Source of the DNA: an uncultured bacterium | Lineage (GTDB): Bacteria > Eisenbacteria > RBG-16-71-46 > CAIMUX01 | Assembly: GCA_964371055.1 (NCBI GenBank) | Contig: CAYJLF010000004.1 | Coordinates: forward strand, 3,993-67,992 | Length of the DNA stretch: 64,000 nt | Direction: 5' to 3' | Shown: positions 6,022 through 54,154 of the stretch, in pieces | How the letters are laid out: each line of letters starts with the position of its first letter | Numbering within the stretch: the stretch's first letter is position 1 | Notes under the pieces: generated by a model | Databases searched by the model: none | Seen by the model: only the letters and a program-made list of their open reading frames with translations | Told to the model about the DNA's origin: nothing | Position numbers and translations under genes: made by a program

Positions 6022-6830
6022 GCGCTGAGGAGCGCGCGCCGGAGGATGCCCCGTCCTACCGCATCCTCGTGGCCTACGATGGCGGGCCTTACCACGGCTG
6101 GCAGTTCCAGCCGGGCCTGCCGACGGTTCAGGGCGAGCTGGAACGTGCGATCCACGCGATCACCGGTTCAGCGATCCGCGTGCAGGGGGCGGGCCGCACC
6201 GACGCCGGCGTCCACGCGCTCGGCCAGGTGGCCAGTTTCCGGGTGGAAACGCGGATTCCCGCGGAGCGACTCGCGGCCGCGTTGAACGCCCACCTCCCTC
6301 CTTCGATCCGCGTCCTCGCTTCGGCGGCCGCACCGGCTCCGTTCGCCGCGCGTTTCTCCGCCCACTGGCGCGCCTATCGCTATCTCCTCGCGCCGCGGGA
6401 GACGCCCTTCACGCGGGGTCGCGCCGTCGTGCCTCGGGGCTGGCCGGCGCTCGAACCGATGCGCCGCGCGCTGCCGGCGATCCTCGGCGAACACGAATTC
6501 CGCGCTTTCACCACGCAGCCGGACGGACCGTTCGGCTGCCGGGTGCACGAGGCGACGTGGGAGGAATGGGACGAGGGAGTTCTCTTCTCCATCCGGAGCA
6601 ACCGATTCCTCTACCAGATGGTGCGGATCCTGGTCGGGACCTGCCTCGAGATCGGGCGGGGCCGACGCGAGGCGGAGAGCCTGGCGACGCTGCTCGAGGG
6701 GGGGGATCGCCGGGCCGCGGGCCCGCTGGCGCCGGCTGGTGGGCTCTATCTCGCCGCGGTCGGATACGACCCGCCGTGGCCCGACGACTCCCTGCTAGCT
6801 CCGCGGAGCGGCCTCGTCCCTCGGGCCTGA
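6018..6830 (+). CDS. truA: tRNA pseudouridine(38-40) synthase
   Basis: 'ILVAYDGGPYHGWQFQP' and 'GAGRTDAGVHALGQV' with the catalytic Asp in the TruA motif. GTG start overlaps the asd stop as GTGA. Confidence 0.85.
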   Translation: MSAEERAPEDAPSYRILVAYDGGPYHGWQFQPGLPTVQGELERAIHAITGSAIRVQGAGRTDAGVHALGQVASFRVETRIPAERLAAALNAHLPPSIRVLASAAAPAPFAARFSAHWRAYRYLLAPRETPFTRGRAVVPRGWPALEPMRRALPAILGEHEFRAFTTQPDGPFGCRVHEATWEEWDEGVLFSIRSNRFLYQMVRILVGTCLEIGRGRREAESLATLLEGGDRRAAGPLAPAGGLYLAAVGYDPPWPDDSLLAPRSGLVPRA

Positions 6831-7526
6831 ATCGGCGCGCGGGCGCCAGCGCCGATAGCGCCAGAGCGTCTGCAGGGTCTCCCACCCGTCGCGCGCGCGG
6901 ATCTTCTTTCCCTCCGAGAGGTGTCGCGGGTGGTAGAGGATCGGAACTTCCACGATCCGTTCGCCGAGTCGGGCCGCCTTCGCCGTCACCTCCGCGCAGA
7001 ACTCGAACCGCTCGCAGACCAGGTCCATCCGGTCGACGAGTTCGCGCGCGATCAGCTTGTAGCAGGTCGGTTCATCGGTCAGGCGGAGGCGGTAGATGAG
7101 ATTCGCCGCCCAGGTGACGAGGATTCCCCCGAGGTAGAAGGCGAGCGCAGAGTACTGCCGATTCGCCCGATGGAGCCGGCGCGATCCGTAGACGACGCGG
7201 GCTCCCGTGGTGCGGGCCGTCTCCAGCAGCAGGCGGAGGTCGGCCGGTTCGTACTCGAGGTCGGCATCCTGCGGCACGACGAACTCTCCGGTGGCCTGCT
7301 GCAGGGCGGTGCGGAGGGCCGCGCCTTTGCCGCGGTTCTGCGCATGTCGCAGCACGCGCACCCGATCGGCGTAGTTCTGGAGGATCGCGGCGGTTCGATC
7401 GCGCGAGGCATCATCGACGACCACGATCTCCTTCTCGACGCCCAGATCGACTTCGAGGACGCGGTCGAGCAGCGCCGCGATCGTGCGCTCCTCGTTGTAG
7501 ACCGGCACCAGGATGCTCAGGCGCAC
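6795..7526 (-). CDS. GT2-family glycosyltransferase, polyprenyl-phosphate sugar synthase type (DPM1/ArnC/GtrB-like)
   Basis: 'LSILVPVYNEE...VVVDDASRD...DADLE' GT-A DXD-type motifs. Its ~240-aa size is typical of Und-P/Dol-P sugar synthases. It overlaps the upstream GT-C gene by 10 nt. Confidence 0.8.
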   Translation of the reverse strand: MRLSILVPVYNEERTIAALLDRVLEVDLGVEKEIVVVDDASRDRTAAILQNYADRVRVLRHAQNRGKGAALRTALQQATGEFVVPQDADLEYEPADLRLLLETARTTGARVVYGSRRLHRANRQYSALAFYLGGILVTWAANLIYRLRLTDEPTCYKLIARELVDRMDLVCERFEFCAEVTAKAARLGERIVEVPILYHPRHLSEGKKIRARDGWETLQTLWRYRRWRPRADSGPRDEAAPRS

Positions 7527-8779
7527 GAACGTTCCCTCCGGAGAAAGCGCAAGAGCGCATAGCCCGAGAAGAGGAACGAGAGCGCGACCGCGGGTGCGAG
7601 GTAGCGGGCGAACGGGAAGACGAACGCCTGGAAGAGGGTGACGAAGGAGACGAGCAGGAGGGCCGGCCAGGCGCGCGCGAAGGCCGCCGGTTCCCGTCGA
7701 CGGAGCGAGCGGGCCCCCGCGAGGAAGAGGACGAAGAGCGGCAGGTGGACGAGGAGGCTGAGCACGCGCTTCCCGCGCCCCAGGGTCTGGAACCAGGAGA
7801 ACGGAATCCCCACCAGCCCCCGGGCGACGAAGCCGAGCGGATCCCGGCCGATTTCCTGCAGGACGAGATCGCGCGCCACCCGCTCATGCCGGATCGCCTC
7901 ACCGGCGGTCCGGTATGCCTGCGACCGGTCGCCGCCGTAGAGCCGGTCGACCACGATCTGGTGCCGCTGCCGGTCCGCTGCCTGGTCGATCACGCGCAGG
8001 TCTTCCCAGCGCAGCATCCCCTTCGAGCACTGGATGCCGTGGTAGAAAGGGGCCCATCCCCAGGCGGAGACCGGCACGGCGACGCCGGTCAGCCGGTGGT
8101 TGCGCGCCGCCCACGGAGCGATGACGACGAGGGTGGCGACAAGGGCCGGGACCGCCCACCGGAGCGCGTGGCGCGCCCCCGGGCGCATCCTCGCGGGGAG
8201 GTAGAGCAGGAGCGCGAGAAAGGGGGGAAACGCCAGGAGAGTGCCGCGCGTGAGGAGCCCTAGTCCGAAGAAGAGGCCGGCGAGGAATCCGTCGCGCGCC
8301 GAGGCGCGGGCGATCGCGCGCGCCAGGAAGAGGGCGAAAGCCAAAAAGAGCGGGAAGTAGAGGTTCTCGCTGTAGAGCCGGGCCGCGTACTCGATCGCGG
8401 TCAGGTGCACGGCGCCGAGAGAGGCGGCGGCGAGCCCGAGCGTCGGGCCCAACACCCACCGTCCGAGCAGGAAGAGCAGCCAGCAACAGAGTCCCCCCAG
8501 GAGCGCCTGCGCGACCTGGACAGCCGCATAATCGACGCCGGCGAAGCGGAAGATCCCCGCGAGGAAGAAGGGGTACCCAGGCGGGCGCTGCAGGGTCGGG
8601 GGGTGCTCAGGGATCAGCCGGTAACCGAGTCCGTCGTGCAGGTGTTCCGCGATGCGCTCGTAGCCGTCGGTGGTTTCGGTCTCGGGGCGCGTGTCCAGCC
8701 ACGCGCGGGCCACGCCGAAGGCGAAGGTCAGGCGCAGCGCGACAGCCGCCGCGACGATCCACCACAACGTCCGATGCAT
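7517..8779 (-). CDS. GT-C fold glycosyltransferase, ArnT/PMT_2 (GT83/GT39-like) family integral membrane protein
   Basis: Polytopic 420-aa membrane protein. It has an N-terminal periplasmic-loop motif 'TDGYERIAEHL', like the ArnT 'DETRYAEISREML' motif. It sits immediately upstream of, and co-directional with, the GT2 gene. Confidence 0.75.
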   Translation of the reverse strand: MHRTLWWIVAAAVALRLTFAFGVARAWLDTRPETETTDGYERIAEHLHDGLGYRLIPEHPPTLQRPPGYPFFLAGIFRFAGVDYAAVQVAQALLGGLCCWLLFLLGRWVLGPTLGLAAASLGAVHLTAIEYAARLYSENLYFPLFLAFALFLARAIARASARDGFLAGLFFGLGLLTRGTLLAFPPFLALLLYLPARMRPGARHALRWAVPALVATLVVIAPWAARNHRLTGVAVPVSAWGWAPFYHGIQCSKGMLRWEDLRVIDQAADRQRHQIVVDRLYGGDRSQAYRTAGEAIRHERVARDLVLQEIGRDPLGFVARGLVGIPFSWFQTLGRGKRVLSLLVHLPLFVLFLAGARSLRRREPAAFARAWPALLLVSFVTLFQAFVFPFARYLAPAVALSFLFSGYALLRFLRRERSCA

Positions 8780-8983: not shown

Positions 8984-11900
8984 TCAGGGAGAGAGGTAGA
9001 TGGGGCGCAGCAGCCGGCGTCCGCCGCCGGTGCAGAGCAGATAGTGGAGCCCGGGTCCCGCCAGTCCGCCCGCCGAGTTGCGGCGGTCCCAGCTCGCCTC
9101 GATCACCGTCCCCGGCCGCACCGCCGCTTCGAAGAGCCGAGCGACCCGCCCGCCGTCCAGGGCGAGGATCTCGAGCCGAAGAACCGCCTGGGGGGGAAAG
9201 TCGGCAGGGACCGTGACGCGGAAGCGGCAGCCGTCCGCCACCGGGTGAGGGAAGGGGCCCTCGACTTCCCAGGTCTCGGCATAGAGCTCCAGCGGGGCTG
9301 AGAGCTGGCTCTCGGCGCCCCCGCGGGTCTCTGCTCGGACCGACACCCGGCGAACCGTGGCGGGATCGGGCCGGTCGAGTTCCCAGACAGCCGTCGGGAT
9401 CAAGGTCTCGGTCAGGCGGAACCAGCCGCCAGGAGCGCCCTGGGCATAGAGACGGTAACCACTGACCCGCGGATCGGCGGAAGGCTCCCAGCGGAGCTCG
9501 AGGCGCGATCCATCCTGACTCCACGACGCCGCGAGGTTGGCGGGGGGATCGGGCGGCGCCAGGTCCTCGGTGTCGGTGCGGAACGATCGAAGGGGCGAGA
9601 GGGGCGAGACGCGGCCGTCGGCGGCGACGGAGCGCACCGCGAGGTGATAGTCGGTCGCTTGCTGGAGGTCCTCGATCACCCACTCGACCGAGTCGCCGGG
9701 AGCCCCCGGCTCGGGCGATTCGACTTCGGTCGCCAGGTTCCAGTTGCTGTCGGCGATGGCGGCCCGGGAGAGGCGGGTTTCGTACCGCGCCGGCACCGGC
9801 GCATCCGCGGGAACGGCCGGGTGCTCCAGGCGCATCGTCACCGAGTTGGTGCCCGCCGCCAGGACTTCGAGCACCGTGACCGCCGGCGGATCCTGAGCCG
9901 GCGGGGGCGGATCGCTCACGAACGGCTCAAGCCTCACACTCGCCGCGAGGGGCGACCACTGCCCTGCCGCGTCGGACGCCCGCACCGCGAGCCATCCCTC
10001 GGACGCCGGGACGAGGCCATCCCATCGGGCCGACATCGTCTCGCCGGCCGGGCGCGGGGTCACCTCGGCGGGAATCGGCGTGGAGGCCTCCCAGAGTGCC
10101 TCGTCTGAAATCGGAGCGTCGAAACTCATTCTTAGATCATAGATTGTGGCCACACCTTCAAGTGAATCCTCACCGGTCGCCACCCACTCCAGTCGAGCCC
10201 AGGTGTCACCCCGATCGCTCACGAGGAGTCCCGCGACGGCGGCGGGGGGCGGGTCTGGGGTGTCGGTGGTGTCCGGCGGGTCGGGGGGCGGCGCAAGCGG
10301 TTCGGTCGTCAACAGGATCGAGTTCGAGATCGGCCCGAATAGGCCCGCCGCGTCCCGCGCCCTCACGGCAAAGCCGTAGGGCGTCGAGGGGGCGAGGTCA
10401 TGGACGCGGGTGGCCTCGACCTCTCCGGGGGGGACCGGGAACGCGATCGCGGCGGTATCGACGGCGGCCCGCGACCAGTCTTCAGCACTCAGGATCAGTC
10501 TCCCCTCGAGATGCGCCACGGCGTATCCGGTGACCGCGACCCCGGTCGTCGAGTCGGCCGGTGCCGTCCACTCGAGATCGACCCAATCGGGTCCGGCCGC
10601 CAGCCGGCCGAGATCGGTGATCCGCTGCGGCGGGAGTGTGTCCGGCTCCGCCGGCGTTTCGACGACGAGCGGGGTGAGGGGCAGCACCGACCGGTGGCCG
10701 GCCGGATCGACCGCCCGGACCGCGATCCCGTACGTCCGCTGGGCCTCGAGACCGAGGACGACAAGAGACCACGGGCCTTCGGCTCCATCCGGGGCGACTT
10801 CCACTTCGCGCGTCGTGTCGGACCGGGACCACGCCTCCTCGCCGGCGATGGCGAGATCCGTGAGCACCCCCACGCGCCAGCGTGCGAGGTCGGTCGGATC
10901 GCCGCCGGCCTCGAGCGACCAGGCGATCTCGACGTCGTGAGGCCGGGCCCACAGGAGACGGAGGTCCGCGGCCGGGGACGGAGGGGTCATGTCGGGGGGT
11001 GGTGGCGGCGGCGACGCGGTCTCCGCCAGGAGAGGATTCGACAACGGCGCCAGGTTGCCGGAGTCGTCTTCCGCCCGCACGGCGAACCCATGCTGACCGA
11101 ATGCGAGTGCGACGACCCGCAGGGTGTCGGTCTTTCCCGGCTCCGAAGGGATCACGGTGGTGGCGTCGATCTCGATCGCTGCCTCCCACCGAGACTCGTG
11201 GTCGATCGCCTCTTCCGCCAGTCGGCGGACCTGGTAGCGCTCGACACGCGGATCGGCATCCGCGCGCGTCGCGATCTCCTCGTACCGGTCCGGCGGCGCG
11301 GTCCAGGCGAGGACGATCCAATCCTCGCCGGCCTCGAGCACCCGGAGATCGGTGATGGCCTCGGGCGCGAGCGTATCCGGATCGACCGGTAACGGAGGAG
11401 GATCCTCGGGGGGCGAGAGGGTGTGGAAGTGCACCGCCGGGCCCATCTCGCCGGCGACCATGGCGGCATCGAAGCCAAAGACCGCCGCGCCGTAGAGTGT
11501 GGCCGGCTCGAGGTCCAGCAGGGTCCAGGTCTCGATCGATCCGGGGGCGGCCGGGGGCGAGGGAAGGATGCGGATCGAACAGCGCGCGAGGTCGGCGACG
11601 CTCAGGAGGGAATCGCCGGCGAGCACCGCCAGGCGGTACTGCGTGCAGGATCCTCCCTCGCCGTCGTCCGGGGCCGTCCACACGAGAGTCGCCTGGGTCG
11701 AGTCGACGGCGGTCACCATCAGGTCGTCGACCGGGGCCGGCGGGCGCTGCGGCGGGGGTGGAGGCGGGACGTACGGTGCGTTCGTGCGCGCGGTGAAGGG
11801 GTTCGAGAGCCCGCCCGTCAATCCCGCGTCATCACGGGCGCGAACGCAGAACCCGTGGAGGCTGTCCGCCGGCAGCCCCTCGAAGCGGAAGAACTGGGTC

Positions 11901-14236
11901 TGCCCCGCGGGAAGGGGAGTCGGCGGCGCGTCCGGCGGCGCGAATCCCGCGGCCCAGTCCGCCTCCGTGCCGATGGCCCGGCCCGGCAAGGCCCGGATCA
12001 GATACGACAGCGCGGTCCCGCTCGATCCGTCGTCGCCGGGCGCGGTCCAGGCCAGTTCGATCCACCTCTCGCCGCGGTCATGCAGCCGGAGATCGGCGAT
12101 CGCGGCGGGCGGCGTCGTGTCGGACGGCGGCGGTGGTGGCGACAGGGTCGAGACCGAGAAGGGGTTGGAGAGGGGTCCGAGATTCCCGGCCGCGTCCACG
12201 GCGCGGACCGCCACACCGTAGGTGACGCCGGGCTGCAGGGCGTAGAGCCTGAACTCCTCCGGCGTGCCGGGATTCCCCGGCGCCGGGATCGAGCCGGAGG
12301 CCGGGGTCGCGGCGGACCACTCGCTCTCGCTCGTGATCGCTCCCCCCAGGCGATAGCGGATCCGGTAGGCGGTCGCACGCCCGGGCGGGCTTTCCTCCGC
12401 CGGCGCAGTCCAGGCCAGGTCGATCCAGCTCTGGCCGCGAGCGGTGGAGCGGACATCGGAGATGGCCGCGGGCGGACTCAGGTCCTGCACCCCCGTAGAG
12501 GTGGTGGCCACGGCCACGTTGCTGGTCCCCGGTTCCAGGCGGCCGTAGACGCGATGCTTCAGGGCGAAGTGGTAGGTCGTGTTCGCCGCGAGGCCGGTCA
12601 CGACGATCGAGACGCCCGCCCCCGGGGCCGCCGTAATCGGGTTTCCGCTCCACGCCGTCGCGTTGTTCCAGTTCGCGGCCGAGATGGGGAAGGGGGCGTA
12701 GCGCAGCTCGGCCCAGTCGATCGGCGACCAGGTCTGGTCGGGCGCGGTCCAGGCGACGCGCACGCGGTCGGATCCCTCGGTCGACGCCGTGAGGTTGCTC
12801 ACCGTCTGCCAGAATCCGAAGCGGCTGTCGCGCGCCGGGACGCTGTTGACGGCGCGGGGGTGTGGGTTCACCTCGACGAAGCCGCGGCTGAAGATCCGGG
12901 TGTAGAGGGTGTCGGGCGGGCTGCCGGTGTAGGTGTCGCGCCCGTAGGGTCCGAGCGGTTGGCCGAAGTCCCACTCGAACTCCGGCTGCCACCAGAGGCC
13001 GCACTCATCCGGCGTGTAGTTGAAGAAGCCGTCTCCGAGCAGCGACGTGCCGAGTCCCCACCGCTTGACCCGAGCCTGCTCCGCGACCGGGGCGTTGGGA
13101 GCCGGGATCACCTGCAGCAGCGTGTGATCCCATCCCTCGATCTCATCGGTTCCGTGATACCCGACCATGTCCTCGGCCCACCGATAGCCCGGTCCGAGCA
13201 TTTCGGTGTGGTCGTAGCTCATCACGCCGTAGAAACCTTCCCACCAGTCGACCCAGGGATTCCAGAGGTAGCTGCACCAGCGCTCGATTTTGATCCCCGT
13301 CACCTCGGTCCGCCATTCCGGCATCATCCGCTTCGTGGCCGTGTTGAGGATGACGAGGACACCCTCGTTCTGCAGGCGCGCCACCTCCTCGCCGAAGAGT
13401 TCGTTCATCTCCCGGTAGAGAATCGAGAGGGAGTCGGCGTCGCCGCCAGATTCGCACGAGTGGTAGACCCCTTCGGCGATCCCATCCCGGTCGGGGTCGG
13501 CCTGGGCATAGGTCTGCCAGCCGAACGAGCCGACGCAGTCGACGAGGATCTCCAGATCGAGGCCGTTGTAGGCGGCACTCCCCGGTCCCCACTTGGGCCA
13601 GATCGTGCCGCTCGTGATGAGGCGCGGCATGACGACCTGGACCAGCCACTCGACGTAGTTGAGCCCCTTGGACGATCCGTAGGTTCCCTTCGGGCAGTAG
13701 CGGGTCCAGTTCGCCGCGTAGCCGTCGGCTTCGGGGATCCGGTTGCCGTGGATGTCCCGCAGGTACCAGTCGTTCTGCTTCGCGTAGAAGAGACAGAGCT
13801 TGCCGATGCTCCACGTCGTGTCGGGGTACCACCACGTGGCGTTCTCGTTCCACTTCACGATGTTCTGGGGCATCCAGTTGTAGAAGAGTTCCACGTCGGG
13901 GTTGCGTTGGCGGACCGCCGACACGGTGTGCGGGCTGTCGCGCAGGAGAACGAGGTCGAACCACGCCAGGGTGTCGAGTTGGGCGGGGGTCATCGTCCCG
14001 ACGCTGCAGACGTACTGCGCGATCCGGGGATAGTTCTCCACGCCGCGGGTAGCCCCGGCCGGCCCTGCGAGCCCCGCGAGGGCGGCCGCGCCGAGGAGTA
14101 GAAGGGCCGCCCCGGTGAGTCCGGAACGGCCGGTGGAGGAAGGGAGAGAACGCACGAAGGGACACCTGAAAGAGGAGTGCCATGAGGAGACCGGCGGCCG
14201 GGAAGCGATAAATCGTCTAAGCCGTTGGCCGTTCAT
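8984..14236 (-). CDS. giant secreted multidomain protein (~1750 aa): signal peptide, glycoside-hydrolase-like TIM-barrel-type domain, ~12 Fn3-like repeats with Pro/Thr-rich linkers, FlgD-Ig/T9SS-like C-terminal domain
   Basis: The signal peptide h-region is 'GAALLLLGAAALAGLAG'. The ~410-aa N-domain is rich in Trp/aromatics ('NGLDLEILVDCVG', 'WNPWVDWWEGFYG'). There are repeated 'WI.LAWTAP...YG.AVRA.DAAGNLGPLSNP' units separated by PPPPP/DTT linkers. The C-terminus reads '...WDRRNSAGGLAGPGLHYLLCTGGGRRLLRPIYL'. Start is taken at ATG 14236 (AAGGG RBS), with an alternative GTG at 14155. The track ORF continues to 17080 but that part is antisense to htrA and purB. Confidence 0.8.
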   Translation of the reverse strand: MNGQRLRRFIASRPPVSSWHSSFRCPFVRSLPSSTGRSGLTGAALLLLGAAALAGLAGPAGATRGVENYPRIAQYVCSVGTMTPAQLDTLAWFDLVLLRDSPHTVSAVRQRNPDVELFYNWMPQNIVKWNENATWWYPDTTWSIGKLCLFYAKQNDWYLRDIHGNRIPEADGYAANWTRYCPKGTYGSSKGLNYVEWLVQVVMPRLITSGTIWPKWGPGSAAYNGLDLEILVDCVGSFGWQTYAQADPDRDGIAEGVYHSCESGGDADSLSILYREMNELFGEEVARLQNEGVLVILNTATKRMMPEWRTEVTGIKIERWCSYLWNPWVDWWEGFYGVMSYDHTEMLGPGYRWAEDMVGYHGTDEIEGWDHTLLQVIPAPNAPVAEQARVKRWGLGTSLLGDGFFNYTPDECGLWWQPEFEWDFGQPLGPYGRDTYTGSPPDTLYTRIFSRGFVEVNPHPRAVNSVPARDSRFGFWQTVSNLTASTEGSDRVRVAWTAPDQTWSPIDWAELRYAPFPISAANWNNATAWSGNPITAAPGAGVSIVVTGLAANTTYHFALKHRVYGRLEPGTSNVAVATTSTGVQDLSPPAAISDVRSTARGQSWIDLAWTAPAEESPPGRATAYRIRYRLGGAITSESEWSAATPASGSIPAPGNPGTPEEFRLYALQPGVTYGVAVRAVDAAGNLGPLSNPFSVSTLSPPPPPSDTTPPAAIADLRLHDRGERWIELAWTAPGDDGSSGTALSYLIRALPGRAIGTEADWAAGFAPPDAPPTPLPAGQTQFFRFEGLPADSLHGFCVRARDDAGLTGGLSNPFTARTNAPYVPPPPPPQRPPAPVDDLMVTAVDSTQATLVWTAPDDGEGGSCTQYRLAVLAGDSLLSVADLARCSIRILPSPPAAPGSIETWTLLDLEPATLYGAAVFGFDAAMVAGEMGPAVHFHTLSPPEDPPPLPVDPDTLAPEAITDLRVLEAGEDWIVLAWTAPPDRYEEIATRADADPRVERYQVRRLAEEAIDHESRWEAAIEIDATTVIPSEPGKTDTLRVVALAFGQHGFAVRAEDDSGNLAPLSNPLLAETASPPPPPPDMTPPSPAADLRLLWARPHDVEIAWSLEAGGDPTDLARWRVGVLTDLAIAGEEAWSRSDTTREVEVAPDGAEGPWSLVVLGLEAQRTYGIAVRAVDPAGHRSVLPLTPLVVETPAEPDTLPPQRITDLGRLAAGPDWVDLEWTAPADSTTGVAVTGYAVAHLEGRLILSAEDWSRAAVDTAAIAFPVPPGEVEATRVHDLAPSTPYGFAVRARDAAGLFGPISNSILLTTEPLAPPPDPPDTTDTPDPPPAAVAGLLVSDRGDTWARLEWVATGEDSLEGVATIYDLRMSFDAPISDEALWEASTPIPAEVTPRPAGETMSARWDGLVPASEGWLAVRASDAAGQWSPLAASVRLEPFVSDPPPPAQDPPAVTVLEVLAAGTNSVTMRLEHPAVPADAPVPARYETRLSRAAIADSNWNLATEVESPEPGAPGDSVEWVIEDLQQATDYHLAVRSVAADGRVSPLSPLRSFRTDTEDLAPPDPPANLAASWSQDGSRLELRWEPSADPRVSGYRLYAQGAPGGWFRLTETLIPTAVWELDRPDPATVRRVSVRAETRGGAESQLSAPLELYAETWEVEGPFPHPVADGCRFRVTVPADFPPQAVLRLEILALDGGRVARLFEAAVRPGTVIEASWDRRNSAGGLAGPGLHYLLCTGGGRRLLRPIYLSP
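9290..12800 (-). repeat. tandem array of ~12 divergent Fn3-like domain-coding repeats inside the giant gene
   Basis: The protein-level periodicity is ~95-140 aa with a conserved Trp ('LAWTAP') and a Tyr-corner ('YG.AVRA.D.AG'). Linkers are PPPP/DTT. Coordinates are approximate. Confidence 0.6.
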
Positions 14237-14473
14237 GCGGCCGGCCCTTGCGGTCCGCGGTCGGGGCTGGAACCGGGTCGCATCCTGCCGGTAGCAGTGC
14301 ATCGTGCACGCCTGGAACCGCGAATTCCGGTGCGTGGCGCCGGGCTCGCCGGGTGAGCCGCAAACGGGGATGCAATCGGGAGACAGGCCGGGTAGTCTGA
14401 AGCCCCGCGCGAGGCGGGGAGGCGGCCGGCGTCGCGGGGTGGGCCCGGGACGGCGGGCCGGGGGAAGGTCACG

Positions 14474-15811
14474 ATGCTTGGCCCAGACCGGGGCGGCCGG
14501 GGCGGATACCGACTCTCTTCGGCGGCCCTGTTCGTCCTTCTGTTTTTGGTGGGAGCCCTCGCGGGCTCGCTCTTCTTTGCGCTCACCCGGCGGGCCGCGT
14601 CCCCCGCCGGTCCGGCCGCCGTATCGGGAGAAGCGCGCGACGCCTCGGGTGAGACGATCCGGCCGGTTCGCTACGACGGGGGGGCCGAAGCGGGCCATCG
14701 CGCCGAGGGGTCGGACGGGGCTGGGACGGCAGAGCGAGAGTCCGCGGGCGATGCGACGGCCAGGATCGCCGCGGCCGACCTCGACCAGAACCGGCGGAAC
14801 GCGATCACCATGGCGGCCGAGAACGCCGGGCGGGCGGTCGTCACGGTCGGCGTCATCAAGACGAGGCTGGTGCGCGGGGCGCCGAGGGTCGCCGATCCCT
14901 TTGATCTCTTCTTCCACCGGTACCTTCCCGGGGTGGTCTACGAACAGAAGATCCCGGGCATCGGCAGTGGGATCATCGTCGATCCCGAAGGAATCGTCCT
15001 CACCAACGAGCATGTGGTGCGCGATGCCACCGAAATCCAGATCATCCTCGCGGACGGCCGCACGCTGAACGCCGAACTGATCGGGGCCGATCCGAATCTC
15101 GACCTGGCGGTGCTCCGGGTCCGGGCCGAAAACCTTCCCTCGGCCGAGCTGGGCGACTCGGATGACCTCGTGGTCGGCGAGTGGGCGATCGCGATCGGCA
15201 ATCCCTTCGGCTTCTACCTCAACGATCACCAACCGACCGTGACCGTCGGCGTGATCTCCGCGCTGCACCGCGACGTCAAGGGGGATGAGACGGCCCAGGC
15301 GATCTACAAGGACATGATCCAGACCGATGCCGCGATCAATCCAGGGAACTCGGGAGGCGCGCTGGTCAACGCGCTCGGCCAGGTGATCGGCATCAACACC
15401 TTCATCTTCACGCAAGGGGGAGGCTCGCTCGGCATCGGCTTTGCAATGCCGATCAACGCCGCCGTCCGCACGGCGCGCGAGATCATCCAGTACGGACACA
15501 CGCGACCGGTCTGGATCGGCATCTACGCGCAGCCGATCTCGCCGTGGGCGGCCCGCCGCCTCGGCCGGGAGTCGACCGAGGGACTGCTCGCCTCGCGCGT
15601 CGAGGCCGGTTCGCCGGCCGAGCGGGCCGGGATGCGCGAGATGGACATCATCCTGGAAATCAACGGCCGGCCGGTCTCCACGCCGCAGCAGGCGATGCGC
15701 ACCATCTTCGGCGCGCAGATCGGCGACCGGATCGCCTTCACCGTCGAACGCCAGGGACGGCGTCTCACGATTCCGGTGCGGATCGAGGCTGCGCCGGAGA
15801 CGGGTGGCTGA
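14474..15811 (+). CDS. htrA: HtrA/DegP-family periplasmic serine protease with N-terminal TM anchor and PDZ domain
   Basis: Trypsin-fold catalytic motifs 'TNEHVV', 'D...', 'GNSGGALVN', plus a C-terminal PDZ domain. GGGGGAAGG RBS. Confidence 0.85.
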   Translation: MLGPDRGGRGGYRLSSAALFVLLFLVGALAGSLFFALTRRAASPAGPAAVSGEARDASGETIRPVRYDGGAEAGHRAEGSDGAGTAERESAGDATARIAAADLDQNRRNAITMAAENAGRAVVTVGVIKTRLVRGAPRVADPFDLFFHRYLPGVVYEQKIPGIGSGIIVDPEGIVLTNEHVVRDATEIQIILADGRTLNAELIGADPNLDLAVLRVRAENLPSAELGDSDDLVVGEWAIAIGNPFGFYLNDHQPTVTVGVISALHRDVKGDETAQAIYKDMIQTDAAINPGNSGGALVNALGQVIGINTFIFTQGGGSLGIGFAMPINAAVRTAREIIQYGHTRPVWIGIYAQPISPWAARRLGRESTEGLLASRVEAGSPAERAGMREMDIILEINGRPVSTPQQAMRTIFGAQIGDRIAFTVERQGRRLTIPVRIEAAPETGG

Positions 15812-15832
15812 GAGGTTGGCAGGGAGGTCGAC

Positions 15833-17170
15833 TTGATCCGACGGTACACGCGGCCGGTCCTGGGCGCCTTGTTCGCCGAGGAGTCCCGGTTCGGCGTCTG
15901 GCTGGAAGTGGAGCTGGCGCACCTGGAGACGCTGGAGGAGGCCGGGATCGCGCCGGCGGGAACGGCGGCCGCCGCGCGGCGGAACGCGCGGTTCACGGTG
16001 GCGCGCATCGATGAGCTCGAGGCGACCCTGAACCACGACGTCGTCGCCTTCCTGACCGCCGTCGGGGAACACCTCGGCGAGGAAAAGGCCTGGCTGCACT
16101 GGGGCATGACGTCGTCCGACCTCACCGACACGGCGCAGGCCGTCATCCTGACGCGCGCCTGGGCGCCGCTTCGCGAGACGCTCGACGCCGTCGGTGCGCG
16201 TCTTCGCCGGCTCTCCGTGGAACACCGCGAGACCGTCTGCGTCGGCCGTACCCACGGTGTCCATGCCGAGCCGACCAGCTTCGGCCTCAAGCTCCTGGGA
16301 TGGTACGCGGAACTCGGACGCCAGCGGGCGAGACTCGGGCGTGCCTTCGCCGGGATCGCCTTCGGCAAGATCTCCGGCGCCGTCGGCACGGCCGCCCATC
16401 TCTCTCCGGTCCTCGAGGAACGGACGCTGGCGCGGCTGGGGCTTTCCGCCGAACCGGCTGCGACCCAGGTCGTGCCCCGGGATCGCCACGCGGAACTCCT
16501 CTCCGCCCTGGCGGGAGTGGGGGCGACGCTGGAGCGGTTCGCGGTCGAGATCCGCCACCTGCAACGGACCGAGGTCCGCGAGGCGGAAGAGCCGTTCGGT
16601 CGGGGACAGAAGGGATCCTCCGCCATGCCGCACAAGCGCAACCCGATCCTCTGCGAGCGGATCACGGGGCTGGCGCGGGTGCTGCGCGCGAACGCGCACG
16701 CGGCGTTCGAGAACGTCGCGCTCTGGCACGAGCGGGACATCAGCCACAGCTCGGTGGAACGGATCATCCTCCCCGACGCGCTCATCCTGGCCGACTACGT
16801 GCTCGACCGCTTCCGCTTCGTGCTGGAAGGACTCAGGATTTTCCCGGAGCGGATGCGGGCCAACCTCGAGTCGACCGGCGGTCTCGTCTACTCGCAGCGC
16901 GTGCTCCTCGAGCTGACGACCGCGCTCGGAAACCGCGAGGATGCGTACCGGATCGTGCAGTCGTGCGCGATGGCGACCTGGGAGGAGGGCGGGTCGTTCC
17001 GCGAACGCCTCGCCGGCCACCCGGAACTGGCGGGCCGTCTCGACCCGGCGATGCTCGACCGGCTCTTCGAGCCGGCGCACTACCTCCGGAACCTCGATCG
17101 GATCTACGAGAGAACCTTAGAACAGGTCTGGGAGGCGGGCGAGGTTCCGCCGGGGAGCGCACCCGCATGA
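15833..17170 (+). CDS. purB: adenylosuccinate lyase
   Basis: Fumarate-lyase signature 'GSSAMPHKRNP' and 'GMTSSD'. TTG start. Confidence 0.9.
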   Translation: MIRRYTRPVLGALFAEESRFGVWLEVELAHLETLEEAGIAPAGTAAAARRNARFTVARIDELEATLNHDVVAFLTAVGEHLGEEKAWLHWGMTSSDLTDTAQAVILTRAWAPLRETLDAVGARLRRLSVEHRETVCVGRTHGVHAEPTSFGLKLLGWYAELGRQRARLGRAFAGIAFGKISGAVGTAAHLSPVLEERTLARLGLSAEPAATQVVPRDRHAELLSALAGVGATLERFAVEIRHLQRTEVREAEEPFGRGQKGSSAMPHKRNPILCERITGLARVLRANAHAAFENVALWHERDISHSSVERIILPDALILADYVLDRFRFVLEGLRIFPERMRANLESTGGLVYSQRVLLELTTALGNREDAYRIVQSCAMATWEEGGSFRERLAGHPELAGRLDPAMLDRLFEPAHYLRNLDRIYERTLEQVWEAGEVPPGSAPA

Positions 17171-26256: not shown

Positions 26257-28704
<2,448 letters not shown>

Positions 28705-28711
28705 CAGGGGG

Positions 28712-31213
28712 ATGCGCTTTCCCGCGACGTCGCGCGTCGCCTCCGGGATCTGGAGTCGAGGGCCGTCCCTGTGGCTCACTCCGGTGCTCGCGGCCCTGCT
28801 CTCGGTCGGACTTCGTCCGGCCGCCGGGCAGATGCTCTCGCCATCCGCGGTGGTCGATCCTCTGGCCGGGCGTCCGGTCAGCCGCATCGAGGTCCTCGGC
28901 AACCGGACCGCCGAGACCCGCCTGATCCTGCGCACCAGTCTGCTCGAGACCGGGCGGCCGGCCGACCGCGAGCGGATCCGCGAGGCGGTCCGCGCGCTCT
29001 ACGGGCTCGGCCTCTTCGAATCGATCCGCGTCACCGACTGGCCCGACTCCGGCGAGGGCCGCGCCCTCGCGATCGAGGTGACGGAGAACCCCCGCCTCGC
29101 CGCGATCCTCTGGGAGGGGAACAAGCGTCTGAAAGACGATGACCTGCGGGCGAAGATCGACCTGCGCGCCGGTCAGGTGATGACGGGGCGCAAGCTGTTC
29201 GAGGCCGTGCAGGCGATCGGGGCGGCCTATCGCGACGAGGGATACCCTTCGGCCCGCGTCGAGTCGCGACTGGAGGATGCGATCCCGGAGCGGCAGCGCG
29301 AGGAGGAGCAGCGCCGCCGGGAAGAGGAGGCCAGAGCGCGGGAAGCGGAGGGAGAGGAGGCGACGGACCGGGAGGAGCGTTTCGCGCGGCTCGATCGGCC
29401 CGTCCTCACGGCCGTCGAGGGGAGGAAGGATCTCACCTTCGTCGTGACCGAAGGGGGGCGCGTGTCGATCCGGGCGGTCGAGTTCGCCGGGGCGACCGCC
29501 TTCAAGCCCGGGGACCTGCAGGGTCCGCTCGCCCTCAAGCCGAACTCGCTCTTCCGGCGGAAGCGGTACACCGCCGAACGTGGACGGGAGGATCGGGAGA
29601 AGCTCGTCGAGTTCTACCAGAACCACGGCTACAAGGATGTCGTGGTGGAAGGTCCCGAGGCGGTCTTTGCCGACGGGGGAGAGTCGGTCACCCTGCGTTA
29701 CACGGTGAACGAGGGGCCGGCCTACCGCTTCGGCACGGTCCGTTGGTCGGGCAATACGGCGGTGCCGACGGAGGCGCTCCAGGCTTCATCCAGCGTGATG
29801 CGCGGCGAACCGTACAGCCGGGCGAGACTCGACGCGACGACGGGCGCTGCGTACGAGCTCTACACGGAGAAGGGACATCTGCTCGAGCTTTCGATCCAGC
29901 CCGAGATCGAGACCGTCGGCGACACGGTATCGGTCGCCTACCGCATCCAGGAGGGAAGTCCGTCGCGGGTCAGAGAGATCACGATCGCGGGCAATACCCG
30001 GACGAAGGAGCGGGTCATCCGGCGTGAGCTGAGCCTCTGGCCCGGGCAACTGCTGCGCCGGTCGGTCCTGCTGCGCAGTCATCGGGACGTCTTCGCTCTG
30101 GGGTTCTTCGAGGATGTGCAAATCGACTACGAGCCGGTCGGCATCGGCTCCGACGTGAATGTCTCCTTCCTGGTCAAGGAGAAGGGGACGGGCACGGCGA
30201 CCGCGGGGGCCGGGTATGCCGGCGACACCGGGTTGACCGGGTTCGTCCAGTTCGGGCATAACAACCTCTTCGGGAACGGCCAGGCCCTGCAGCTCCATCT
30301 CGAGCGGGGCAGCCGGCGGCGCACCTACGACATCTCCTTCACCGAGCCGTGGGTCTTCAACACCCCCACCTCCCTCGGTTTTCAGCTCTACAACACGGTG
30401 CGGGAGTACGATCTCTACAGCGCCCGCGAACGGGGCGGCGGGATCAACCTGGGACGGCAGCTTCCGCCGAAGCTGTGGGGAGTCCGGCTCCCCGACTACT
30501 CCCGCGCGTCCCTCGGATACACGCTCGAGGAAGTGCGCTACAGCGATCTGGAGGATCTCGATCCGGAGAGCCGCGAGATCCTGCGGGACGGCAACGGCAC
30601 CGTCTCGCGCGTCAACATGGCTTTCAGCCGCAACAGCACCGACAATCCCTTCAACCCCACCGCGGGGAGCCGCAGCCTGGTCCGGCTCGAGCTGGCCGGG
30701 GCGGTCCTCGGCGGCGGGATCCACTACTACAAGCCGGAGATCGACCACCGGGTCTACTTCGTGCCGTTCTGGAAGCCGGCCGTGATGCTGCGGAACCGCG
30801 TCGCGCTGGTCGGCAAGTATCCCGGCGAGAAAATCCCAGGTTCTGAGACGTTCCGCCTCGGCGGCACCCGCACCGACTACCTGCGCGGGTATCCCGACTA
30901 CGAGATCATGCCGGAGGAGAACGTCCGCGTCATCGACGGCCGTGAGGTGCGCTTTCCCGGCGGACGGTTCGCCTACACTTTCACCGCGGAGTACCAGTTC
31001 CCGATCGTCAATCCGGTGCGGGGCCTGGTCTTTTTCGACGCCGGCAATACCTGGAACGAGGCGGGCGACTTCACGGTGGGCAACCTGAAGAAGGGGGTCG
31101 GAGCGGGGATTCGCCTGGAGATCCCGATGCTCGGTGTCGTCGGCTTCGACTACGGCTACGGCGTCGATCGCGGCAAGTGGCAATCACACTTCATCATCGG
31201 GCCCGCTTTCTAA
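28712..31213 (+). CDS. bamA: outer membrane protein assembly factor BamA (Omp85)
   Basis: Signal peptide, multiple POTRA domains, and a C-terminal 16-strand barrel ending in aromatic 'IGPAF'. Conserved bamA-skp-lpxD context. Confidence 0.85.
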   Translation: MRFPATSRVASGIWSRGPSLWLTPVLAALLSVGLRPAAGQMLSPSAVVDPLAGRPVSRIEVLGNRTAETRLILRTSLLETGRPADRERIREAVRALYGLGLFESIRVTDWPDSGEGRALAIEVTENPRLAAILWEGNKRLKDDDLRAKIDLRAGQVMTGRKLFEAVQAIGAAYRDEGYPSARVESRLEDAIPERQREEEQRRREEEARAREAEGEEATDREERFARLDRPVLTAVEGRKDLTFVVTEGGRVSIRAVEFAGATAFKPGDLQGPLALKPNSLFRRKRYTAERGREDREKLVEFYQNHGYKDVVVEGPEAVFADGGESVTLRYTVNEGPAYRFGTVRWSGNTAVPTEALQASSSVMRGEPYSRARLDATTGAAYELYTEKGHLLELSIQPEIETVGDTVSVAYRIQEGSPSRVREITIAGNTRTKERVIRRELSLWPGQLLRRSVLLRSHRDVFALGFFEDVQIDYEPVGIGSDVNVSFLVKEKGTGTATAGAGYAGDTGLTGFVQFGHNNLFGNGQALQLHLERGSRRRTYDISFTEPWVFNTPTSLGFQLYNTVREYDLYSARERGGGINLGRQLPPKLWGVRLPDYSRASLGYTLEEVRYSDLEDLDPESREILRDGNGTVSRVNMAFSRNSTDNPFNPTAGSRSLVRLELAGAVLGGGIHYYKPEIDHRVYFVPFWKPAVMLRNRVALVGKYPGEKIPGSETFRLGGTRTDYLRGYPDYEIMPEENVRVIDGREVRFPGGRFAYTFTAEYQFPIVNPVRGLVFFDAGNTWNEAGDFTVGNLKKGVGAGIRLEIPMLGVVGFDYGYGVDRGKWQSHFIIGPAF

Positions 31214-31223
31214 GGAGAGAGAG

Positions 31224-31787
31224 ATGGAACGACCGCGGCGCGAGACACGAAGGGTCGGAGTCGTGGCGGTGGCGATCGGCCTCGCGTTCATCGCGGCCGG
31301 GATCGCGCGGGCCGACGTCCGGATCGCCTTCGTCAACTCCGAGACGATCCTCGAGCAGTCGAAGGAGGCGCAGAACGCGCTGGCCGGCTTCACGCGCGAT
31401 GTCGAAGGGTGGAACAAGGAGGCGCAGGACCGGCGCAAGGGGCTGGATGATCTGACGCGCGAACTGACCCAGCAGGCGCCGATGCTCAGCGACGAGAGGC
31501 GGCGCGAGCTGGAGCAGGACCTGCAGCGCAAGCTGACCGAGTACGACCAGTACATCCAGAGCATCTGGGGTCCCAACGGGCTGGTCGTCAAGCGGAACGA
31601 AGAGGTGCTCCGCCCGATCGTGACCAAGATCCAGCTCGAGTTGCAGACGATCGGCGCGGAGGAGGGGTACGACATCGTCTTCGATGCGGCCGACGCCAAT
31701 GTGCTGTATGCTGATCCGGCCCTCGATCTGACGGCCCGGATCATCGAGAAGTTGAACGCCGATCTGGAAACCGGCCAGGGGAACTGA
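31224..31787 (+). CDS. skp: periplasmic chaperone Skp/OmpH
   Basis: Signal peptide plus a coiled-coil-rich ~165-aa body. Conserved position between bamA and lpxD. AAGGAGAGAGAG RBS. Confidence 0.75.
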   Translation: MERPRRETRRVGVVAVAIGLAFIAAGIARADVRIAFVNSETILEQSKEAQNALAGFTRDVEGWNKEAQDRRKGLDDLTRELTQQAPMLSDERRRELEQDLQRKLTEYDQYIQSIWGPNGLVVKRNEEVLRPIVTKIQLELQTIGAEEGYDIVFDAADANVLYADPALDLTARIIEKLNADLETGQGN

Positions 31788-31902
31788 CGAGGGCGGAGGG
31801 GACCGTCGGCGGCGCTCGCGCGCGGCCGGGAGGGAGGCGCGCCGCGAGGTTCGGAGACGGCGGATCAGGTCAGAGATCGGGAGGTCACGAGAGGGTGGGT
31901 GG

Positions 31903-32979
31903 ATGGAGCTGAGCCTGGCGGAACTGGCCGCGCGGCTGCGCGCGCGCCTGGCGGGAGACGGTTCCGTCCGTATCCGGGGAGTGGCCGGGCTGCGCGAGGC
32001 CGGACCGGGGCAGCTCTCGTTTCTCGCCAACCCCAGGTATGCGGAACTCGTCGCCCAGACCCGCGCCTCCGCCGTGATCCTGCCGGAGTCGTTCCCCGCG
32101 ACGGGGATCCCCGCCCTCTACACCCCGGAACCCTATCTCGCCTTCGTGGAAGCGTTGGAGATCTTCGACCAGAGCGTGCCGGAGACCGTCCCGCCCGGGA
32201 TCGACGCCACGGCGGCGATCGATCCGAGCGCCCTGGTCGATCCCACCGCCTCGATCGGCCCCTTCGTGGTCGTCGGACCGGCGGCGCGCATCGGCGCCGG
32301 GTCGCGGATCATGGCGGGCTGCTACGTGGGGCCCGAGGTCAGAGTCGGGAGCGCGTGCTTCCTGCACCCTCACGTGGTGTTGCGACGTCAGACGGAACTC
32401 GGTGATCGCGTCATCATCCATGCCGGTGCGGTCCTCGGAGACGACGGCTTCGGCTTCGCGCCGGATGGTGAGGCCTACCGGAAGATCCCTCAGCTCGGCC
32501 GCGTGGTGGTGGAGGATGAGGTCGAGATCGGGGCGAACACCACCATCGACCGGGGGACGACCGGCGTCACACGGATCGGTCGGGGCTCCAAGATCGACAA
32601 CCTGGTCATGATCGCCCACAACGTGGAGATCGGCCCGGACACCATCATCTGCGCGCAAGCCGGGCTCTCGGGTTCGGCGCGCGTGGGGCGCCACGTCACC
32701 CTCGGCGGCCAGGCCGGGGTCACGGGGCATATCGCCATCGGCGATCACGCCCGCGTCGGGGCCCAGAGCGGCGTCACCCGGGCGATTCCGGCCGGCGAAA
32801 CCTGGTCCGGCTATCCGGCCCAACCGCATCGCCAGGCCTCGCGCGCTTACGCCGCCCTGCGGGATCTGGCCGCGGCGCTCCGGGAACTGCGCCGGCTCGA
32901 GGAACGCGTCCGGGCGCTGGAGAATCGACCCGGCGGGGATTCGGAAGACGAACGGAACGGGGAGTCGAGTACGCCATGA
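31903..32979 (+). CDS. lpxD: UDP-3-O-(3-hydroxyacyl)glucosamine N-acyltransferase
   Basis: N-terminal LpxD domain plus left-handed beta-helix hexapeptide repeats ('IGANTTIDRG', 'IGPDTIICAQAG'). Confidence 0.85.
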   Translation: MELSLAELAARLRARLAGDGSVRIRGVAGLREAGPGQLSFLANPRYAELVAQTRASAVILPESFPATGIPALYTPEPYLAFVEALEIFDQSVPETVPPGIDATAAIDPSALVDPTASIGPFVVVGPAARIGAGSRIMAGCYVGPEVRVGSACFLHPHVVLRRQTELGDRVIIHAGAVLGDDGFGFAPDGEAYRKIPQLGRVVVEDEVEIGANTTIDRGTTGVTRIGRGSKIDNLVMIAHNVEIGPDTIICAQAGLSGSARVGRHVTLGGQAGVTGHIAIGDHARVGAQSGVTRAIPAGETWSGYPAQPHRQASRAYAALRDLAAALRELRRLEERVRALENRPGGDSEDERNGESSTP

Positions 32980-34292: not shown

Positions 34293-34306
34293 GGGGGAGG
34301 GGTTCG

Positions 34307-35089
34307 ATGGTCAGCGTGGATCCGACCGCCAGGGTGGAAAAGGGCGCGGAGCTCGGCGACGGTACGATCGTCGGGCCGTGGTGTCGCATCGGTCCGGAAG
34401 TGCGCGTCGGCGAAGGTTGCCGGCTGGACGCGATGGTGCTCCTCGACGGACGGACCGAGGTCGGGCCGCGCTGCCGGTTCCACCAGGGTGCCGTCGTCGG
34501 ATCACCGCCGCAGGACCTGAAGTATGCGGGTGCGCCGACCGTCTGCCGGGTCGGCGCGGGGACCGTGGTCCGTGAGTATGCCACGATCAATCGATCGACC
34601 AGCGTGGACGAGCCGACCGTGGTGGGGGACGACTGCCTGATCATGTCCTACGCCCATGTCGCGCACAACTGCCGGCTGGGGCACCACGTGATCCTGGCCA
34701 ACTCCGCCAACCTGGCCGGGCACGTCCGGGTCGACGACTGGGCGATCGTCGGCGGCGTCACCCCCGTGCACCAGTTCGTCAAGATCGGCGCGCATGTGAT
34801 GATCGGCGGGGGGTCGCGCGTGCCCCTGGACATCGCACCGTACCTCAAGGCGGCCGGCAGTCCGCTCCGGGTAATCGGGATCAACAAGATCGGACTTCAA
34901 CGACGCGGCTTCGCGCCGGAGGCCATCGCCGAGATCGGACGGATGTACCGCCTCTTCTTCCGGTCGAATCTCCTCAAGGAGGAGGCGATGAGCCGCATTC
35001 GCGCTGAACTCAGCCCGCTGCCCGAGATCGAGTACTTTCTCCGCTTCGTGCAGGAGGCGGAACGGGGGCTGGCCCGGCCGGCGCACTGA
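34307..35089 (+). CDS. lpxA: acyl-ACP--UDP-GlcNAc O-acyltransferase
   Basis: Hexapeptide-repeat beta-helix with LpxA-type C-terminal helical domain. It follows fabZ as in the canonical cluster. Confidence 0.85.
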   Translation: MVSVDPTARVEKGAELGDGTIVGPWCRIGPEVRVGEGCRLDAMVLLDGRTEVGPRCRFHQGAVVGSPPQDLKYAGAPTVCRVGAGTVVREYATINRSTSVDEPTVVGDDCLIMSYAHVAHNCRLGHHVILANSANLAGHVRVDDWAIVGGVTPVHQFVKIGAHVMIGGGSRVPLDIAPYLKAAGSPLRVIGINKIGLQRRGFAPEAIAEIGRMYRLFFRSNLLKEEAMSRIRAELSPLPEIEYFLRFVQEAERGLARPAH

Positions 35090-35116
35090 CGGCGCGCCCG
35101 GTGCAAGGAGATCGCC

Positions 35117-53960: not shown

Positions 53961-54037
53961 CGGGGCGTGGCGCAGCCTGGTAGCGCACTTGCATGGGGGG
54001 CAAGTGGTCGCTGGTTCAAATCCAGTCGCCCCGACCA
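53961..54037 (+). tRNA. tRNA-Pro (anticodon GGG), CCA encoded
   Basis: Manual fold: acceptor cggggcg/cgccccg, anticodon stem cttgc/gcaag with loop atGGGgg, T-loop ttcaaat. Confidence 0.8.
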
Positions 54038-54154
54038 GTTCTTCGTGGTGACTCCCCGGGGCGGGCGGCCTGGTGCGCGCCGGCGCCGGGGAGTCGTCCG
54101 TTTCCATCTCGGCCGCTGCCCCGCGCGGCTCCGACCGGTGGGGGAGATCCCGTG

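Follow-up and report, generated by a model that had tools for sequence, protein, structure and literature searches.

The question raised by the 64,000-nucleotide stretch of Eisenbacteria DNA analyzed here (the window) is what a single giant secreted protein, encoded on its minus strand at 8984-14236, might do for the cell, and where it might do it. The protein is built from a barrel-type, probably enzymatic head, a stalk of ten Fn3 modules and a small domain at the extreme C-terminus. Our favored reading, to which we assign a probability of roughly 0.6, is that it is a glycoside hydrolase that is exported by Sec, passes through the outer membrane by virtue of its C-terminal beta-sandwich, and is most likely attached to the cell surface with the enzyme at the tip of the stalk. 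The features of the gene and its product are as follows; residues are numbered throughout from the ATG start (1,750 amino acids (aa)).

8984..14236, minus strand: the whole gene, encoding 1,750 aa from the ATG at 14236, or 1,723 aa if the GTG at 14155 is the start; stop codon at 8984-8986
14051..14236, minus strand: signal peptide region (aa 1-62), with a basic n-region, the hydrophobic core LTGAALLLLGAAALAGLAG and an AGA/TRG cleavage motif, and without a lipobox Cys
12812..14050, minus strand: catalytic-type head (aa 63-475), a predicted (beta/alpha)8 barrel with a small C-terminal beta-sheet, divergent GHL15/GH168-like
13550..13552, minus strand: E229, at the end of beta4 in NGLDLE-ILVDC, the putative equivalent of the GH168 nucleophile Asp by a chain of alignments
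13283..13285, minus strand: E318, at the end of beta6 in GIKIE-RW, the putative equivalent of the GH168 acid/base Glu by the same chain
12491..12811, minus strand: Fn3 module 1 (aa 476-582), purple-acid-phosphatase-N-like (Pfam Pur_ac_phosph_N, E 5e-12, aa 484-562)
9278..12484, minus strand: the stalk, Fn3 modules 2-10 (aa 585-1653; Pfam fn3 and an internal profile), with Pro-rich linkers between modules
8987..9256, minus strand: C-terminal domain (aa 1661-1750), a predicted seven-strand beta-sandwich of the FlgD_ig / type IX secretion system (T9SS) type A sorting-domain family

The gene is genuine, single and intact. Its reading frame is uninterrupted on the minus strand up to the stop codon, the G+C content at third codon positions is 0.81 over the stop-to-stop frame that contains it, and homologs are found at E values down to 1e-200. 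The original prediction, made from the letters of the DNA, was of a giant secreted protein at this position, and a signal-peptide-like N-terminus, head, Fn3 modules and tail are indeed all present in one open reading frame (ORF). The motifs that it quoted are likewise all there (NGLDLEILVDCVG at aa 224, WNPWVDWWEGFYG at aa 325, YHGTDEIEGWDH at aa 360, LAWTAP three times, and the tail motif at aa 1716). Two starts are plausible, namely the ATG at 14236 that was first chosen (1,750 aa) and the GTG at 14155 (1,723 aa). The identical locus occurs in public metagenome assemblies, ENA ERZ13693099 among them, with the gene called from the GTG; the resulting 1,723-aa product is identical to P0025, a representative in the 50%-identity cluster library. 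Because public gene calls start at the GTG, a look-up of the 1,750-aa product returned no record.

A mechanically called ORF reaches 17080 on the same strand (8984-17080, 2,698 codons), free of stops for about 2.8 kb beyond the true start. We rejected the extension as coding sequence: its part upstream of 14302 runs antisense through an htrA-like gene and purB, both on the plus strand. Such a stop-free frame is a typical artefact of high G+C content (about 70% in the window), and a naive gene call would be inflated by it. Scans for promoter and terminator consensus sequences around both gene ends found none, and are uninformative at 70% G+C.

The N-terminus has the character of a Sec signal. 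As read from the sequence, the signal peptide region contains no acidic residue and has an isoelectric point (pI) of 12. From the GTG start it reads as an ordinary signal peptide, MRSLPSSTGRSG-LTGAALLLLGAAALAGLAG-PAGA/TRG, with a Leu/Ala core, and the homologs carry equivalent hydrophobic N-termini followed by (T/I/L)RG-x-NYP.

The middle of the protein is occupied by Fn3 modules, which number ten. Pfam fn3 (PF00041) matches seven stretches with a score of 155 bits against a cut-off of 25 (E 6e-46), and a profile built from five internal repeats detects nine modules, placing modules 2-9 at aa 585-697, 706-818, 830-939, 954-1073, 1082-1194, 1199-1311, 1326-1438 and 1447-1556. Module 10, a shorter canonical Fn3 domain at aa 1558-1653, is matched by Pfam Ig_RIMBP2 (1561-1651) and by other Fn3-like models. 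Module 1 adjoins the head in most family members, is conserved in the homolog alignment, and was modelled together with the head at high confidence. The predicted stalk with Pro-rich linkers is thus real, and its number of modules as delimited by Pfam and the internal profile is ten, not the approximately 12 first proposed. Identity between modules is only 21-43%, so the array is ancient, and we rejected a recent repeat expansion on the same grounds. The linkers are 1-14 residues long and rich in Pro (LSPPPPPS, NAPYVPPPPPP, LSPPEDPPPLPVDP and ASPPPPPP are examples); the protein has four runs of at least four Pro residues. The head and stalk are acidic (pI 4.1-4.9) except for module 1 (pI 6.9), and the tail has a pI of 10. 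An Fn3 domain measures about 3.5-4 nm and a polyproline II helix extends 0.3 nm per residue. By simple arithmetic, the stalk would span roughly 35-40 nm of Fn3 domains plus up to about 20 nm of linker, which makes the reach of 40-50 nm originally suggested a reasonable figure.

The aromatic-rich N-terminal region that had been pointed out corresponds to a 413-aa head (aa 63-475) with 24 Trp and 23 Tyr residues, and its AlphaFold2 model is a confident (beta/alpha)8 barrel (pLDDT 91.1). Against Pfam GHL15 (PF14885, Naumoff's hypothetical glycoside hydrolase family 15; gathering cut-off 27 bits), the head alone scores 26.1 bits and the whole protein 20, with the match of the head restricted to profile positions 212-270, the last 60 or so. 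A word-indexed search returned 24 relatives at 42-55% identity; those with a named source are all Candidatus Eisenbacteria metagenome-assembled genomes, and several of the 24 carry precomputed GHL15, fn3 and FlgD_ig domains, the GHL15 domain passing the Pfam model. An exhaustive search with a head-only profile returned 720 proteins (63 at E <= 1e-30), and its distant matches of about 400 aa are bona fide GHL15 proteins, 17 of 21 passing Pfam. Aligned by hhalign with these GHL15 members, the head family gives a probability of 100% (E 1e-48) over 360 columns, that is, over the whole barrel. A profile of the GHL15 members in turn retrieves chains of glycoside hydrolase (GH) family 168 from the Protein Data Bank (PDB) at E 1e-24 to 1e-11; by sequence, then, the route from the head to GH168 goes through an intermediate GHL15 profile.

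Structural comparison of the predicted head leads to the same neighborhood. Its comparison values with solved GH168 structures (9jof, 24.0; 9nhf, 23.4; 9f9v, 23.4; 9jos, 22.4) exceed those with other barrels (GH42, 16.5; GH191, 15.4; PelA, 13.8; Cwp19 of GHL10, 13.1; Ega3 of GH114, 12.9), at a structural-alignment identity to GH168 of 12-17%. One of these GH168 structures, 9nhf, was deposited under the name “GHL15 protein”. Judged by the model, the closest characterized family is GH168, the retaining endo-alpha-1,3-fucanases (Pfam GHL15). The original suggestion of a GHL-type TIM barrel agrees with the predicted fold; GH114, the family that it named, is not the nearest, and we rejected that assignment in favor of GH168/GHL15.

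The catalytic residues can be traced through the same chain. GH168 enzymes work by a retaining mechanism in which an Asp on beta4 is the nucleophile and a Glu on beta6 the acid/base; in WfGH168_II these are D172 and E243 (PMC12534559). In the GH168 chains, the second acid of D-G-x-F-x-D and the Glu of M-x-E-H-F are separated by 70 residues in 9nhf and by 58 in 8ya6. The spacing in 8ya6 agrees with D206 and E264, reported as the catalytic pair of Fun168A. That in 9nhf agrees with the published numbering of MeGH168, whose catalytic pair is D167/E237 (PMC12210190). These spacings therefore identify the catalytic residues in the alignments, and by hhalign the two positions map to E229 (N-G-L-D-L-E) and E318 (G-I-K-I-E) of the head, each of which directly follows a predicted strand in the model. 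The position of E229 is Glu in all 53 close family members, and among 25 distant ones 23 have Asp or Glu there; E318 is Glu in 53/53 and 24/25, respectively, and aligns with E243, the beta6 acid/base of WfGH168_II. In four GHL15 members, too, the nucleophile position is occupied by Glu. Other residues on the barrel face (N176, W177, K316, W369 and R392) are invariant in the family. A loop after beta4 with the sequence DPDxDG (DPDRDG at aa 247-252; 13481-13498) is conserved in the family and in its GHL15 relatives, but the GH168 chains are gapped there; the loop may bind calcium. In mechanism, the head very likely follows the retaining TIM-barrel glycanases of the GHL15/GH168 superfamily. As assessed by sequence profiles, it belongs to a distinct GHL15 subfamily of about 50 clusters which, where named, come from Eisenbacteria only.

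The C-terminal tail is the element that would determine the protein's destination. Its AlphaFold2 model (pLDDT 88.8) has seven strands, and a D-x-x-G-R turn between beta3 and beta4 is conserved in the tail family. T9SS C-terminal domains are seven-strand, 3+4 Ig-like beta-sandwiches in which the beta3-beta4 loop and the C-terminal strand are conserved (PMC11285876). A profile of 14 homolog tails matches aa 1663-1742 of the window protein from end to end (22 bits; E 6e-9 with one protein scored). Five of seven homolog tails pass FlgD_ig (PF13860) and five of seven reach the trusted cut-off of TIGR04183 (at least 23 bits); the C-terminal regions of PorU and PorZ are matched as well, though less strongly. 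Once the window tail is included, the profile finds 579 proteins at E values down to 1e-22; the best 120 of these all carry PF13860, about half also PF18962, and one protein found by the profile is named by NCBI [quoted passage not shown]. Through these transitive profile matches, the tail is placed as homologous to the FlgD_ig / T9SS type A C-terminal-domain family. The FlgD-Ig/T9SS-type tail originally proposed is thereby borne out as to family, by way of the homolog tails and not by any direct match to Pfam or NCBIfam.

The profile match of this domain ends eight residues before the stop codon in the window protein, and in every relative, across about 520 kb of related loci, the domain is 0-13 residues short of the stop codon. 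It also terminates unrelated neighboring ORFs at those loci (9765-11642, minus strand, at L009; 10833-13091, plus strand, at L020; 12874-13218, minus strand, at L014), including a Reeler-domain protein, a pattern that fits a general role as a sorting signal in Eisenbacteria. Among the long-stalk proteins, the tail constitutes a well-conserved subtype, GPFPHP...WD(R/T/G)R...PG(F/L)Y...R-x-I-Y-(L/V)-x-P.

A contiguous outer-membrane and lipid A cluster occupies 28619-41990 of the window (bamA, skp, lpxD, lpxC-fabZ, lpxA, a GFO/IDH oxidoreductase, lpxB, DUF374, kdtA and lpxK). The host is therefore a diderm with a lipid A pathway, lipopolysaccharide, BamA and Skp. In the scheme that we propose, the N-terminal signal peptide would direct export by Sec; the C-terminal beta-sandwich would then be recognized by a type IX-like system for passage across the outer membrane; the protein would most likely be attached to the cell surface through its C-terminal end; and the ten Fn3 modules with their polyproline-type linkers would act as a spacer, holding the N-terminal enzyme at the far tip. 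The order of the domains, with the enzyme N-terminal and the putative anchor C-terminal, fits such a head-distal display.

The overall architecture had been called unusual. On the contrary, it recurs across Eisenbacteria and is a conserved trait of the family. The same head, roughly 5-12 Fn3 modules and the same tail are found in at least 13 other 50%-identity clusters and in eight of 30 species-representative loci; proteins in at least 13 other clusters have 7-12 modules and lengths of 1,545-2,025 aa. With one genome taken per species, 30 loci encode relatives, and those at least 41% identical that have a named taxonomy are all Candidatus Eisenbacteria. Their architectures range from the head only (relatives of about 400 aa with neither stalk nor tail), through head plus tail, up to head plus 12 Fn3 modules plus tail. 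Further, single Eisenbacteria genomes contain two or three head paralogs with very different stalk lengths: three loci on one 2.45-Mb contig (L009, L014 and L016) have stop-to-stop ORFs of 601, 851 and 1,376 codons, and two on a 1.07-Mb contig (L019 and L020) have ORFs of 816 and 1,589 codons. Paralogs with 0-12 modules and length differences within a genome suggest that reach is a tuned property.

A number of observations weigh against the surface-displayed enzyme, and they fall on the head, the tail and the route between them. As to the head, its score stays below the GHL15 gathering cut-off (26.1 versus 27 bits), and phmmer comparison of the head with PDB sequences did not retrieve a GH168 structure. 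A whole-family profile run against the PDB gave no GH match, only FlgD and Fn3 domains; the best match among these searches, 8rg5 (E 0.17 over 30 residues), is not significant. At the position of the GH168 Asp nucleophile (D172 of WfGH168_II) the head has Glu, which keeps the carboxylate. Further, GH168 enzymes have a “polar knuckle” Lys after beta2 (K66 of WfGH168_II) that is strictly conserved and essential for recognizing sulfated fucose (PMC12534559). It is seen as an (I/L)-E-K motif in the GH168 PDB chains and is absent from the head, where D100 is aligned with it; Asp or Glu stands there in 35 of 53 relatives, and Lys is rare at the neighboring column as well, the uncertainty of the alignment being about one residue. 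Since these two defining residues are lacking, the head is not a GH168 enzyme in the strict sense. For the same two reasons, it is purely by deduction that we infer an active retaining endo-glycanase acting on an alpha-linked extracellular polysaccharide.

These departures also bear on the probable substrate. The head is acidic (pI 4.8), and this acidity, the exchange of the polar knuckle Lys for Asp or Glu, and the Glu nucleophile together disfavor a sulfated polyanion. The pI and the lost sulfate-binding Lys argue in particular against activity as a sulfated-fucan endo-alpha-1,3-fucanase. A neutral or cationic polysaccharide, not a sulfated one, is the probable substrate.

As to the tail, the last 102 residues of the window protein match no Pfam or NCBIfam model at E <= 10. 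The window tail has His (aa 1732, which is H82 of the 101-aa segment; 9041-9043) where other long-stalk tails have the Tyr of G-x-Y, and WDR where short-stalk tails have WDG. These substitutions may explain why the curated models fail on it. Foldseek comparison of the tail model with the PDB gave nothing at E <= 1e-3, and PorU (3.5e-3) and FlgD (4e-2) appeared among generic Ig folds, so that this comparison of a predicted structure is not discriminating. As to the route, none of the genes in the 64-kb window encodes a T9SS component, we found no literature report of a T9SS in Eisenbacteria, and NCBI taxonomy leaves the phylum unplaced, outside the FCB group. Finally, the sequence by itself fits either an anchored or a released protein.

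The points concerning the tail and the route also fit a rival reading, in which the tail is an Ig-like domain unrelated to type IX secretion in this phylum, serving as an envelope or ligand-binding module or as the signal for some other, undescribed export route, with its matches reflecting shared beta-sandwich ancestry. We regard this as doubtful, but as a proposal to be taken seriously: in addition to the missing curated match, the generic Foldseek result and the want of T9SS genes in the window or of reports for the phylum, the family profile also matches the flagellar FlgD structures 7eh9 and 7bhq (E 1e-6). It fares less well with the constant placement of the domain at the extreme C-terminus, on unrelated secreted proteins as well, and with homolog tails that reach the TIGR04183 trusted cut-off and match the C-terminal regions of PorU and PorZ. 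Further, the T9SS is thought to occur in several FCB phyla other than Bacteroidota (PMC11285876). We continue to infer type IX-like export followed by C-terminal anchoring.

The anchoring step is where another possibility enters. The protein could be a released extracellular enzyme whose C-terminal domain is only an export signal and is cut off, with the Fn3 array acting as a flexible spacer or substrate contact, as in many secreted carbohydrate-active enzymes. Some T9SS cargo, such as Flavobacterium ChiA, is indeed set free, no anchoring step can be identified in the sequence, and relatives consisting of the head alone exist. We consider release unlikely, on the strength of two observations that are not decisive: the order of head, stalk and tail is strictly kept over 0-12 modules, and rigid Pro-rich linkers would better suit a spacer between two fixed ends. 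Least tenable is the view that the head is a non-catalytic, carbohydrate-binding or adhesive pseudo-enzyme and the whole protein a long adhesin, which we judge very improbable, for although Glu replaces the GH168 nucleophile, the substrate-recognition Lys is lost and giant repeat-stalk adhesins are common, both catalytic carboxylates and N176, W177, K316, W369 and R392 are invariant in 53/53 members, pseudo-enzymes usually lose at least one catalytic residue, and four bona fide GHL15 proteins share the Glu.

If the protein is, as we favor, an enzyme displayed on the surface, its paralogs invite a broader and decidedly speculative picture, which we think has little chance of being right in full. 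In it, Eisenbacteria would use a phylum-specific set of GHL15-type glycanases on graded Fn3 stalks (0 to about 12 modules), exported and anchored through a divergent type IX-like C-terminal domain. Paralogs of unequal length in a single cell would bring the same chemistry to several distances from the outer membrane, perhaps for trimming or harvesting a thick coat of polysaccharide. The long-stalk member would be a conserved core gene, and its partner, a periplasmic HtrA chaperone/protease, would handle the giant cargo.

The genes on either side of the giant gene are these.

14474..15811, plus strand: htrA-like serine protease/chaperone gene (Trypsin_2 and PDZ), divergent from the giant gene
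6795-8779, minus strand: two overlapping genes, PMT_2 (420 aa, a glycosyltransferase of GT-C type) and GT2 (243 aa), which come next downstream, 204 nt from the giant gene

An htrA-like gene is the divergent upstream neighbor of the family gene in 14 species-level Eisenbacteria loci (L008, L009, L011, L017, L018 and L021-L029). The adjacency holds even where purB no longer adjoins and at HtrA identities as low as 39%, and the copy next to htrA is usually the long-stalk paralog. A functional link and plain synteny both fit this pattern. The locus of a 1,843-aa relative (P0032) is syntenic with the window over htrA, the giant gene, truA, asd, a methyltransferase and lnt. The PMT_2/GT2 pair is absent from that locus, from the loci of the short homologs P0003 and P0016, and from all 30 genome loci, and is therefore lineage-specific. 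We accordingly dropped it as an explanation of the family, whether as glycosylators of the linkers or as partners in an enzymatic pathway; in the window's own lineage the pair could glycosylate the Pro/Ser/Thr linkers.

Otherwise the window contains housekeeping genes (dapA, lnt, asd, truA, purB/L/Q/F, mcsB, clpC, bamA, skp, lpxD/C/A/B/K and kdtA, and further mutL, miaA, der, gpsA, surE, murJ and xerC). A look-up of the ORF at 53993-54988 found nothing. A XerC/D-type tyrosine recombinase (62431-63396, plus strand) stands amid these housekeeping genes, and there is no sign of a mobile element around the giant gene.

If the favored reading is correct, the head represents an uncharacterized branch of the GHL15/GH168 superfamily, apparently confined to one phylum, whose Glu nucleophile and missing sulfate-recognition residue point to a new substrate specificity among enzymes active on alpha-glycans. 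Type IX-style C-terminal sorting domains would be extended to Eisenbacteria, an uncultured phylum of soil and sediment, and the window protein would be a concrete cargo with which to ask whether these bacteria have a T9SS. The graded stalk lengths would amount to a natural experiment on the distance from the outer membrane that the enzyme requires. Current ideas would all stand; the finding is a clearly delimited lead rather than a surprise.

Among known systems, the closest in fold to the barrel of the head are the GH168 enzymes (Fun168A/WfGH168 and MeGH168; 8ya6, 9nhf, 9jof, 9jos and 9f9v). Theirs is a positively charged crevice, whereas the window head is acidic; they have an Asp nucleophile and the polar knuckle Lys, whereas the head has Glu and its family mostly Asp or Glu at these respective positions; and they lack the DPDxDG loop that the head possesses. 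They are marine degraders of fucoidan, whereas the head comes from soil- or sediment-type Eisenbacteria and, unlike them, continues into a long Fn3 stalk that ends in a tail of sorting type. GHL15 is homologous to the head over the whole barrel, although the head scores below its cut-off and belongs to a separate subfamily. GH114, the family first suggested, and GH166 and GH135 (Ega3, the PelA hydrolase domain and Sph3) belong to the same broad group of TIM barrels and act on alpha-linked exopolysaccharides.

For the protein as a whole, two further comparisons are useful. RTX adhesins such as Marinomonas MpIBP use arrays of Ig/Fn3-like domains to project an end-domain tens of nanometers from the outer membrane; they are type I secretion substrates with an N-terminal anchor and a ligand-binding tip. 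The window protein differs in its putative enzyme tip, its opposite polarity and its different putative secretion route. The T9SS type A cargo of Bacteroidota (for example, P. gingivalis RgpB and F. johnsoniae ChiA) has the same order of Sec signal, functional domains, Ig/Fn3-like modules and terminal beta-sandwich, and hydrolytic enzymes are typical of such cargo. To our knowledge, the ten-Fn3 stalk is much longer than any in characterized T9SS cargo. The window tail also represents a divergent subtype (GPFPHP...R-x-IY-L-x-P), which the curated models do not recognize, and Thr rather than Gln follows the predicted signal cleavage site. What the window tail and the T9SS cargo appear to share is a seven-strand sandwich of 80-90 residues at the extreme C-terminus, with its D-x-x-G-R loop (PMC11285876).

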